Source: a virus (Duplodnaviria > Heunggongvirae > Uroviricota > Caudoviricetes). Taken from it: a stretch of 13,878 nucleotides of DNA. The notes beneath the pieces are model-generated. The model was given only the letters and a program-made list of their open reading frames with translations. It did no database searches and had not been told where the DNA came from. The position numbers were made by a program, and so were the translations under genes. The stretch lies in IMG/VR virus record IMGVR_UViG_2802429219_000007. One strand, written 5' to 3'. This document shows, in pieces, positions 11,144 to 12,103 of the stretch. Within the stretch, counting starts at the first letter, position 1. Each line of letters opens with the position of its first letter.

Positions 11144-12103
11144 ATGATAAAAAAACCTGTGATTGGAATCAGCGGTTGTTTGGCCGGCTCTGCTGTTCGT
11201 TTTGATGGTGGTCACAAAAGAGCTGACTTTTTAATGGACAAATTAGTGGAATAGGTAACATTCAGACCAGTATGTCCGGAAATGGCTATAGGGCTGCCAG
11301 TTCCGCGTCCTGCTCTACGTCTTGTGCGCTCGACGCAAGGAAATATACGGATGTGTTTCAGCCACGACCAGAATGAGGATGTGACAGAGAGAATGACAGA
11401 GTTTAGTCGTTCTTATATGGACAAATTAAAGGATGTATCGGGGTTTGTGGTTTGTGCTAAATCTCCCAGCTGTGGCATGGAGCGCGTGCGTGTCTATGAT
11501 GAAAATGGTAATCGAGGTCGTAAAGATGGAGTGGGACTATTTACGAGCACTTTGATGGAAAAGTTTTCCTGGCTACCGGTTGAAGAGGATGGGCGATTAC
11601 ATGATCCAGTGCTTCGTGAGAATTTTGTTGAAAGAGTTTTTGCTTTGCATGAGCTCAATCACCTTTACAAGGAGAAATTATCAAGAAGAGAGTTATTAGC
11701 TTTTCATAGTCGTTATAAGCTTCAGTTGTTGGCGCATAGTCAGGCAGGCTATAAAGATATGGGACCATTTGTGGCTGCAATACACGAGTGGGCGGACCTT
11801 GAATCATACTTTGAGGTGTATCGTGATAAGCTGATGGCGATTCTCAGAAAACCTGCATCACGTAAAAATCACACGAATGTGCTGATGCATATACAGGGGT
11901 ATTTTAGTAACTACTTAAGTACACGCCAGCGTAAAGAGTTGAGCGAGGTTATACTTAACTATCGTTCTGGCACATTACCTCTTCTTGCGCCGTTGACTCT
12001 GCTGAAGCATTATCTGGGTGAGTATCCTAATGATTACTTGCTTACACAGAATTACTTCGATCCCTATCCGGACGAACTGGCTCTAAGACTGATGGTAAAT
12101 TAA
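11144..12103 (+). pseudogene. DUF523 (TudS-like Fe-S thiouracil desulfidase domain) fused to DUF1722 (YbgA-like), interrupted by an in-frame TAG at 11252-11254
   Basis: ATG at 11144 with SD AGGGGGAG gives MIKKPVIGISGCLAGSAVRFDGGHKRADFLMDKLVE, then TAG; the same frame continues VTFRPVCPEMAIGLPVPRPALRLV...VVCAKSPSCGMERV... (DUF523-like Cys positions) and a C-terminal DUF1722-like region (LLAFHSRYKLQLLAHSQAGY...). The supplied ORF track shows only the downstream 273-aa piece (11282-12103). Confidence 0.6.

Follow-up and report, generated by a model that had tools for sequence, protein, structure and literature searches.

The window, that is, the whole 13,878-nt stretch of DNA analysed here (contig PTSA01000058.1 of draft assembly GCA_002965785.1), carries a gene for a fusion of a TudS (DUF523) domain with a DUF1722 domain, which is interrupted at codon 37 by an in-frame amber codon. 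This W37* allele is very probably an ordinary loss-of-function pseudogene of a known gene, rudS, and not a new mechanism. In the scenario favoured here, the prophage-borne rudS would normally supply a TudS-type [4Fe-4S] desulfidase joined to a DUF1722 tRNA-binding domain, and the enzyme would remove sulfur from tRNA 4-thiouridine (s4U). A single G-to-A transition at 11253 would have turned Trp37 (TGG) into amber, translation from the strong start at 11144 would stop after 36 residues, leaving the full-length enzyme absent, and any product re-initiated at Met47 or Met70 would probably be unable to hold the catalytic cluster normally and would be catalytically dead.

The divided RudS frame and its relatives

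The frame opened by ATG 11144-11146 runs for 319 codons to TAA 12101-12103, and TAG 11252-11254 is its sole interruption, as had been claimed from the sequence alone; the two entries of the open reading frame list, of 36 and 273 aa (see table), lie in this common frame. When the stop is replaced by Trp, both domains of the proposed fusion are present at full length in the repaired protein: PF04463 (2-thiouracil desulfurase, DUF523) spans residues 7-149 (E 3e-40, profile 1-141 of 141; 137.9 bits, with a Pfam cutoff of 34.7), and PF08349 (DUF1722) spans residues 192-309 (E 2e-40, profile 1-117 of 117). The 36-codon 5' fragment by itself matches PF04463 at profile positions 1-28 (E 1e-5), which bears out the assignment of these codons to DUF523, and the frame from ATG 11282 matches positions 43-141. 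Complementary parts of the profile on either side of the TAG, in a single frame, point far beyond chance to one domain that has been split by the stop.

The TudS-DUF1722 architecture was described in 2024 and named RudS (Jamontas et al., NAR; PMC11417400). RudS is a [4Fe-4S] desulfidase that converts tRNA s4U to uridine; TudS forms the catalytic core and DUF1722 adds tRNA binding, and single Cys substitutions mostly abolished activity (PMC11417400). Judged from its sequence, the window gene has the architecture of this known tRNA 4-thiouridine desulfidase. The codons for Cys12, Cys44, Glu46, Ser107, Ser109 and Cys110 are all present, and their numbering is identical to that of RudS_vir and RudS_ST (Table 1 of PMC11417400). 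The gene thus has the TudS/DUF523 domain, the fused DUF1722 and the ligand and catalytic residues of RudS, but it lacks one uninterrupted frame that holds all ligands and both domains. Because the TAG cuts Cys12 off and the post-stop frame starts beyond Cys44 and Glu46, the window copy is classified as a pseudogene allele of rudS and not as a functional member. The study of Jamontas et al. describes E. coli as devoid of TudS/RudS homologues (PMC11417400). This is true for K-12 but untrue for the species, as 1,139 of 5,426 complete E. coli genomes (~21%, about one fifth) carry a prophage rudS, and the locus is nearly always chromosomal in them.

RudS_vir (Escherichia phage 1H12 gp66, YP_009909557.1; 319 aa) is identical to the repaired window protein at 298 of 319 residues (93.4%) and has Cys12, Cys44 and Cys110 at common positions. 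Its overexpression lowered tRNA s4U, although less than that of some orthologs (PMC11417400). The 1H12 gene is intact and its activity has been shown, whereas the window copy has a TAG in the place of Trp37 and belongs to a defective prophage with flanking IS sequence. RudS_ST (ORF319, STM1389 of Salmonella enterica LT2) shares the architecture, the length of 319 aa and the same three Cys positions (Table 1 of PMC11417400), but it is an intact chromosomal gene reportedly under a MerR-family regulator (PMC11417400), whereas the window copy is a prophage accessory gene beside an AraC-family regulator. TudS (PDB 6Z92), a stand-alone DUF523 desulfidase and the only solved relative by sequence, has a homologous N-terminal domain (phmmer E 2e-4, residues 6-66), and the motifs CL.G..VR.DG and CPE are common to TudS and the window gene. 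TudS has no DUF1722, however, and its substrates are free thiouracil and thio-UMP, not tRNA (PMC10611767; PMC11417400); at the position of Trp37 it has a Gly.

Residue conservation was assessed in a close set of 113 homologs of 319 aa (70-99% identity, mostly Enterobacterales) and in a diverse set of 142 full-length family representatives (about 36-56% identity). Cys12, Cys44, Glu46 and Cys110 are found in all 113 close homologs. In the diverse set, Cys12 and Cys44 each occur in 140 of 142 proteins, Pro45 and Glu46 each in 141, Ser107 in 141, Ser109 in 134 and Cys110 in 138. The conserved ligand within VVCAKSPSCG is Cys110, not Cys104 (142 representatives; Table 1 of PMC11417400); position 104 is mostly Lys in the diverse set. 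The sequence-only reading had expected a conserved Trp at the site of the stop, which holds for the close Enterobacterales homologs (Trp in 108 of 113) but not family-wide, where position 37 is aromatic or hydrophobic (Y 41, F 33, H 21, L 10, V 9 and W 8 among the 142). The window protein shares 70-77% identity with chromosomal homologs from Enterobacterales. Pairwise comparison of intact E. coli and phage alleles gives dN/dS values of 0.10-0.22, with dS up to 0.30, indicating that purifying selection normally maintains the intact gene, which is also the case in the functional phages 1H12 and IdasGreatGrand.

The prophage accessory module

A defective, IS-flanked DLP12-like E. coli prophage carries the gene, in its accessory ('moron') region between Q and the holin. 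Many E. coli chromosomes contain annotated lambdoid prophages of the DLP12-like type to which positions 127-13751 of the window align at 99.9% over 13.6 kb. The order is cI-like S24 repressor, cro-like gene, ydaT, O, P, ren, emrE, ylcJ, ybcK, ybcL, ybcM and ybcN, followed by ninE, ybcO, rusA, ylcG, antiterminator Q, blc-like lipocalin (opposite strand), rudS, AraC-family regulator, essD and rrrD. This order, with the lambdoid early and late gene set, identifies the region as a DLP12-like Q-to-S accessory module. The functional phages 1H12 and IdasGreatGrand carry an equal module; in 1H12, the order Q, blc (opposite strand), rudS, HTH regulator and holin is the same as in the window. Since an ISEc48-like IS3-family end lies inside the endolysin gene rrrD, this prophage copy has lost its endolysin.

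Several further features of the prophage were observed. The best NCBIfam match of the AraC-family regulator is YdeO, at 127 bits, far under the cutoff. The rusA gene (9309-9671) is intact here and encodes 120 aa, and in the nearest complete genomes, such as elppa4 and WP2-W18-ESBL-10, it has an extra G in the run near 9393-9397 and is annotated as frameshifted; the window thus retains a gene that its closest relatives have lost. Terminator-like hairpins on the + strand at 10370-10393 and 13248-13269 bracket the blc/rudS/araC module, lying ~100 nt after Q (tR'-like) and ~100 nt before the holin gene; their count is not above chance, and they are described only as positions. A promoter and terminator scan of 9800-13600 gave no excess over shuffled sequence (13 against 11.6 and 2 against 2.6 expected, respectively).

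Table. Features of rudS and its surroundings in the window (positions are those of the window)
Feature	Position	Strand	Basis
IS21-like element end (istB region), contig end	1..126	.	
Antiterminator Q	9894..10271	+	PF06530, annotation of relatives
blc-like lipocalin lipoprotein, divergent from rudS, accessory module	10427..10951	-	Pfam; NF007786, 314 bits
Shine-Dalgarno-like AGGGGGAG, 3 nt 5' of ATG 11144	11133..11140	+	Read from the sequence
rudS (TudS/DUF523-DUF1722 fusion), pseudogene allele with amber at codon 37	11144..12103	+	Pfam, allele comparison
5' fragment, 36 codons and TAG, start of the TudS domain including ligand Cys12 (TGT 11177-11179)	11144..11254	+	
Amber codon TAG (Trp37 to stop), mutated base 11253 (G to A)	11252..11254	+	Allele comparison
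Cys44-Pro45-Glu46 codons (second cluster ligand, catalytic Glu), 3' of the stop and 5' of the first possible restart	11273..11281	+	Conservation; roles from PMC11417400
Longest post-stop frame, Met47 to end, 273 aa: partial TudS and complete DUF1722, weak ribosome-binding site	11282..12103	+	Gene call of the source assembly
Alternative frame from Met70, 250 aa, modest SD (AAGGA)	11351..12103	+	Gene caller's choice on two other TAG-bearing contigs
Ser107-Pro108-Ser109-Cys110 codons (catalytic serines, third cluster ligand)	11462..11473	+	Conservation and PMC11417400
DUF1722 domain (residues 192-309), tRNA-binding domain in RudS	11717..12070	+	PF08349; role from PMC11417400
AraC-family regulator, 3' of rudS, accessory module, intact	12455..13186	+	Pfam, NCBIfam
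Holin essD, marks the end of the Q-to-S accessory region	13375..13590	+	PF04971
IS3-family (ISEc48-like) end interrupting rrrD, contig end	13752..13878	.	

Rarity and reality of the W37* allele

Intact orthologous coding sequences of 960 nt (WP_000592546.1 and variants) are annotated at the corresponding place in further E. coli genomes. The closest of these differ from the window gene at one of 960 nt, gene position 110 (window 11253), which is G there and A here, so that the suggested change of TGG to TAG by one transition is what the comparison gives. An allele query of 57 nt centred on the stop was matched in 1,022 complete E. coli genomes. With the G restored, this 57-mer is found exactly in 1,010 of them, in agreement with the expectation of TGG in other isolates, and the TAG form is found exactly in none of the 1,022 complete genomes carrying the site. 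A 36-nt pattern containing the TAG likewise had no exact match among IMG/VR viral contigs or JGI metagenome contigs. The one-base difference and the absence of the TAG from these complete genomes make a recent nonsense pseudogene, one of the two options put forward in the sequence-only reading, the best-supported one.

The allele is not confined to the window. An exact look-up of the 36-aa product found it on two more contigs, assembled independently from public reads (Logan: SRR3988017 and SRR12885726); the remaining contigs from this look-up stop at gene positions 108-110 and are uninformative on codon 37. The SRR3988017 contig shows no difference from the window over 5,300 nt, and that from SRR12885726 shows 38 differences over 4,089 nt and is without the window's private SNP at 9961. 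In the latter genotype the DUF1722 part also bears the non-synonymous change D306A (gene nt 917, corresponding to window 12060); this single observation fits relaxed constraint after the stop. That the gene is really intact and the TAG a sequencing or assembly error, the ground on which the sequence-only reading would have given up the stop, is an idea that could draw on the draft status of the contig, on the single-base nature of the change and on its absence from complete genomes; the recurrence of the TAG base in the two read sets, one of them of a clearly different genotype, makes an error exceedingly improbable and points to a real but rare, lineage-restricted allele. Either W37* has persisted long enough to occur in two backgrounds that can be told apart, or it arose twice.

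Over the 13.6-kb alignment, 10-11 substitutions and one 1-nt indel distinguish the window from the complete genomes nearest to it. The ten substitutions that separate it from the closest genome comprise 1 nonsense (rudS), 3 missense, 4 synonymous and 2 intergenic changes; the missense changes are V89M in P (3185-3886), D80G in EmrE (4253-4585) and T23I in Q (9894-10271). Only rudS has an internal stop, and the other 20 of 20 complete coding sequences of the window are intact, which counts against heavy decay of this copy by point mutation. Within rudS itself, the absence of secondary lesions indicates that the W37* allele is evolutionarily young.

The neighbourhood of codon 37 is also a place where assemblies break. 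Contigs that end 1-3 nt from codon 37 (window 11251-11253) come from different assemblies and number at least seven, one of them a 440-kb contig of GCA_036290625.1; this suggests that the assembly graph branches here, be it at an IS junction, through a second diverged copy or because of mixed alleles. Three Logan contigs of other samples have GGTAACATTC (window 11254 onward) directly preceded by one or the other of two different terminal inverted repeats, which we take for the ends of an IS2-like element. The two repeats at this junction imply insertions in both orientations with the right junction at 11253/11254, beside the base that is mutated here. No complete genome gave the exact IS2 junction at codon 37/38 as one contiguous match; the full-coverage matches are in two pieces, with IS2 elsewhere near the gene.

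Products of the allele and competing explanations

Anti-SD pairing is strongest at ATG 11144, with a duplex energy of -10.5 kcal/mol; the values for Met47 and Met70 are -3.5 and -5.4. The first in-frame start 3' of the stop is ATG 11282 (Met47), directly after Cys44-Pro45-Glu46. The product from this ATG had been expected to lack just the first ligand Cys, which underestimates the damage: a product from Met47 or Met70 is without Cys12, Cys44 and Glu46, that is, without two of three cluster ligands and the catalytic Glu. Because these residues are missing and single Cys substitutions mostly abolished RudS activity (PMC11417400), the post-stop product is predicted to be inactive. Low-level near-cognate readthrough of the UAG, or re-initiation, may take place in the TAG allele, and, given the published mutagenesis, we infer that the allele yields no active desulfidase.

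The 282 codons downstream of the stop are intact, as expected for a young mutation, and this equally fits a product that is still used. The stop might then make a useful shorter protein, re-initiated at Met47 or Met70, which would be cluster-less but would keep DUF1722 and act like YbgA, for example in tRNA binding. The frames from both Met codons have been called as genes, ATG 11282 is just 27 nt past the stop and in principle near enough for re-initiation, stand-alone DUF1722 proteins such as E. coli YbgA occur naturally (PMC11417400), and the C-terminal half of the window protein aligns with the equivalog model of YbgA (E. coli K-12 b0707; NF007549, profile 9-164 of 169). The score of this alignment, however, is 190-191 bits, below the NCBIfam family cutoff of 237, and YbgA is a core-genome gene without a TudS part, whereas the restart product would drag along ~100 residues of broken TudS, as seen in the PF04463 positions that the 273-aa frame keeps, without Cys12, Cys44 and Glu46. 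The SD at both internal ATGs is weak. Position 47 is Met in 111 of 113 close homologs but Val in 76 of 142 diverse representatives, so that there is no conserved internal start. Overexpressed YbgA left s4U and thiouracil growth unaffected (PMC11417400), and nothing in the 0 of 1,022 count for the TAG suggests that the allele is favoured. A useful shorter protein is therefore quite unlikely. An undamaged downstream frame would also be expected if the TAG were read through to full-length RudS, whether a supE-like suppressor tRNA of the host or programmed recoding were responsible, but this is highly improbable. Amber suppressor alleles exist in E. coli but are rare in natural isolates, and the species is not known to have pyrrolysine machinery; the window contains no tRNA gene (ARAGORN) and no Rfam element at gathering thresholds. 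Programmed recoding is ruled out by the missing TAG in the 1,022 genomes and by the Trp or other aromatic residue of homologs at position 37. The candidate class of programmed stop-codon recoding genes was rejected for this locus, as the stop is not conserved and the window gives no tRNA or Rfam signal.

It is also conceivable, although unlikely, that the loss was selected and not neutral, an active tRNA s4U eraser being costly in some E. coli backgrounds where knock-outs would be repeatedly favoured. Several independent disruptions of rudS speak for this: E. coli B C3029 and NT1F25 have the gene cut short by IS3 after ~codon 50, in JX21CE35 IS3 splits it and IS2 lies just upstream, and the Logan contigs have the IS2-like ends at 11254. 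A contiguous match to >=80% of the region was found in 1,048 of the 1,139 carrier genomes, leaving ~8% without one. Most carriers, however, keep an intact rudS under the purifying selection described above (dN/dS 0.10-0.22), and neighbouring accessory and lysis genes are likewise damaged by IS elements or frameshifts in other strains, as general prophage decay predicts: the AraC-family regulator downstream of rudS is replaced by IS1 in EH01-18-02 and frameshifted in PK8275 and Z1322HEC0010. Very unlikely, in our view, is that a domain fission has been caught in progress, with the Met47 or Met70 product kept as a cluster-less, YbgA-like DUF1722 protein for tRNA binding, or else that the repeated knock-outs (TAG, IS2, IS3) record selection against a prophage s4U eraser in some E. 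coli lineages. If true, a domain fission would show a route from RudS fusions to stand-alone DUF1722 genes.

With an ordinary loss-of-function pseudogene as the preferred reading, the proper annotation of the locus is a rudS pseudogene (W37*), rather than a 273-aa 'YbgA family' protein and a 36-aa open reading frame. Beyond annotation the W37* locus itself matters little. Natural knock-outs of this kind could, however, act as controls for the role that the prophage s4U eraser plays in the lysogen or in the phage, UVA tolerance being one example.
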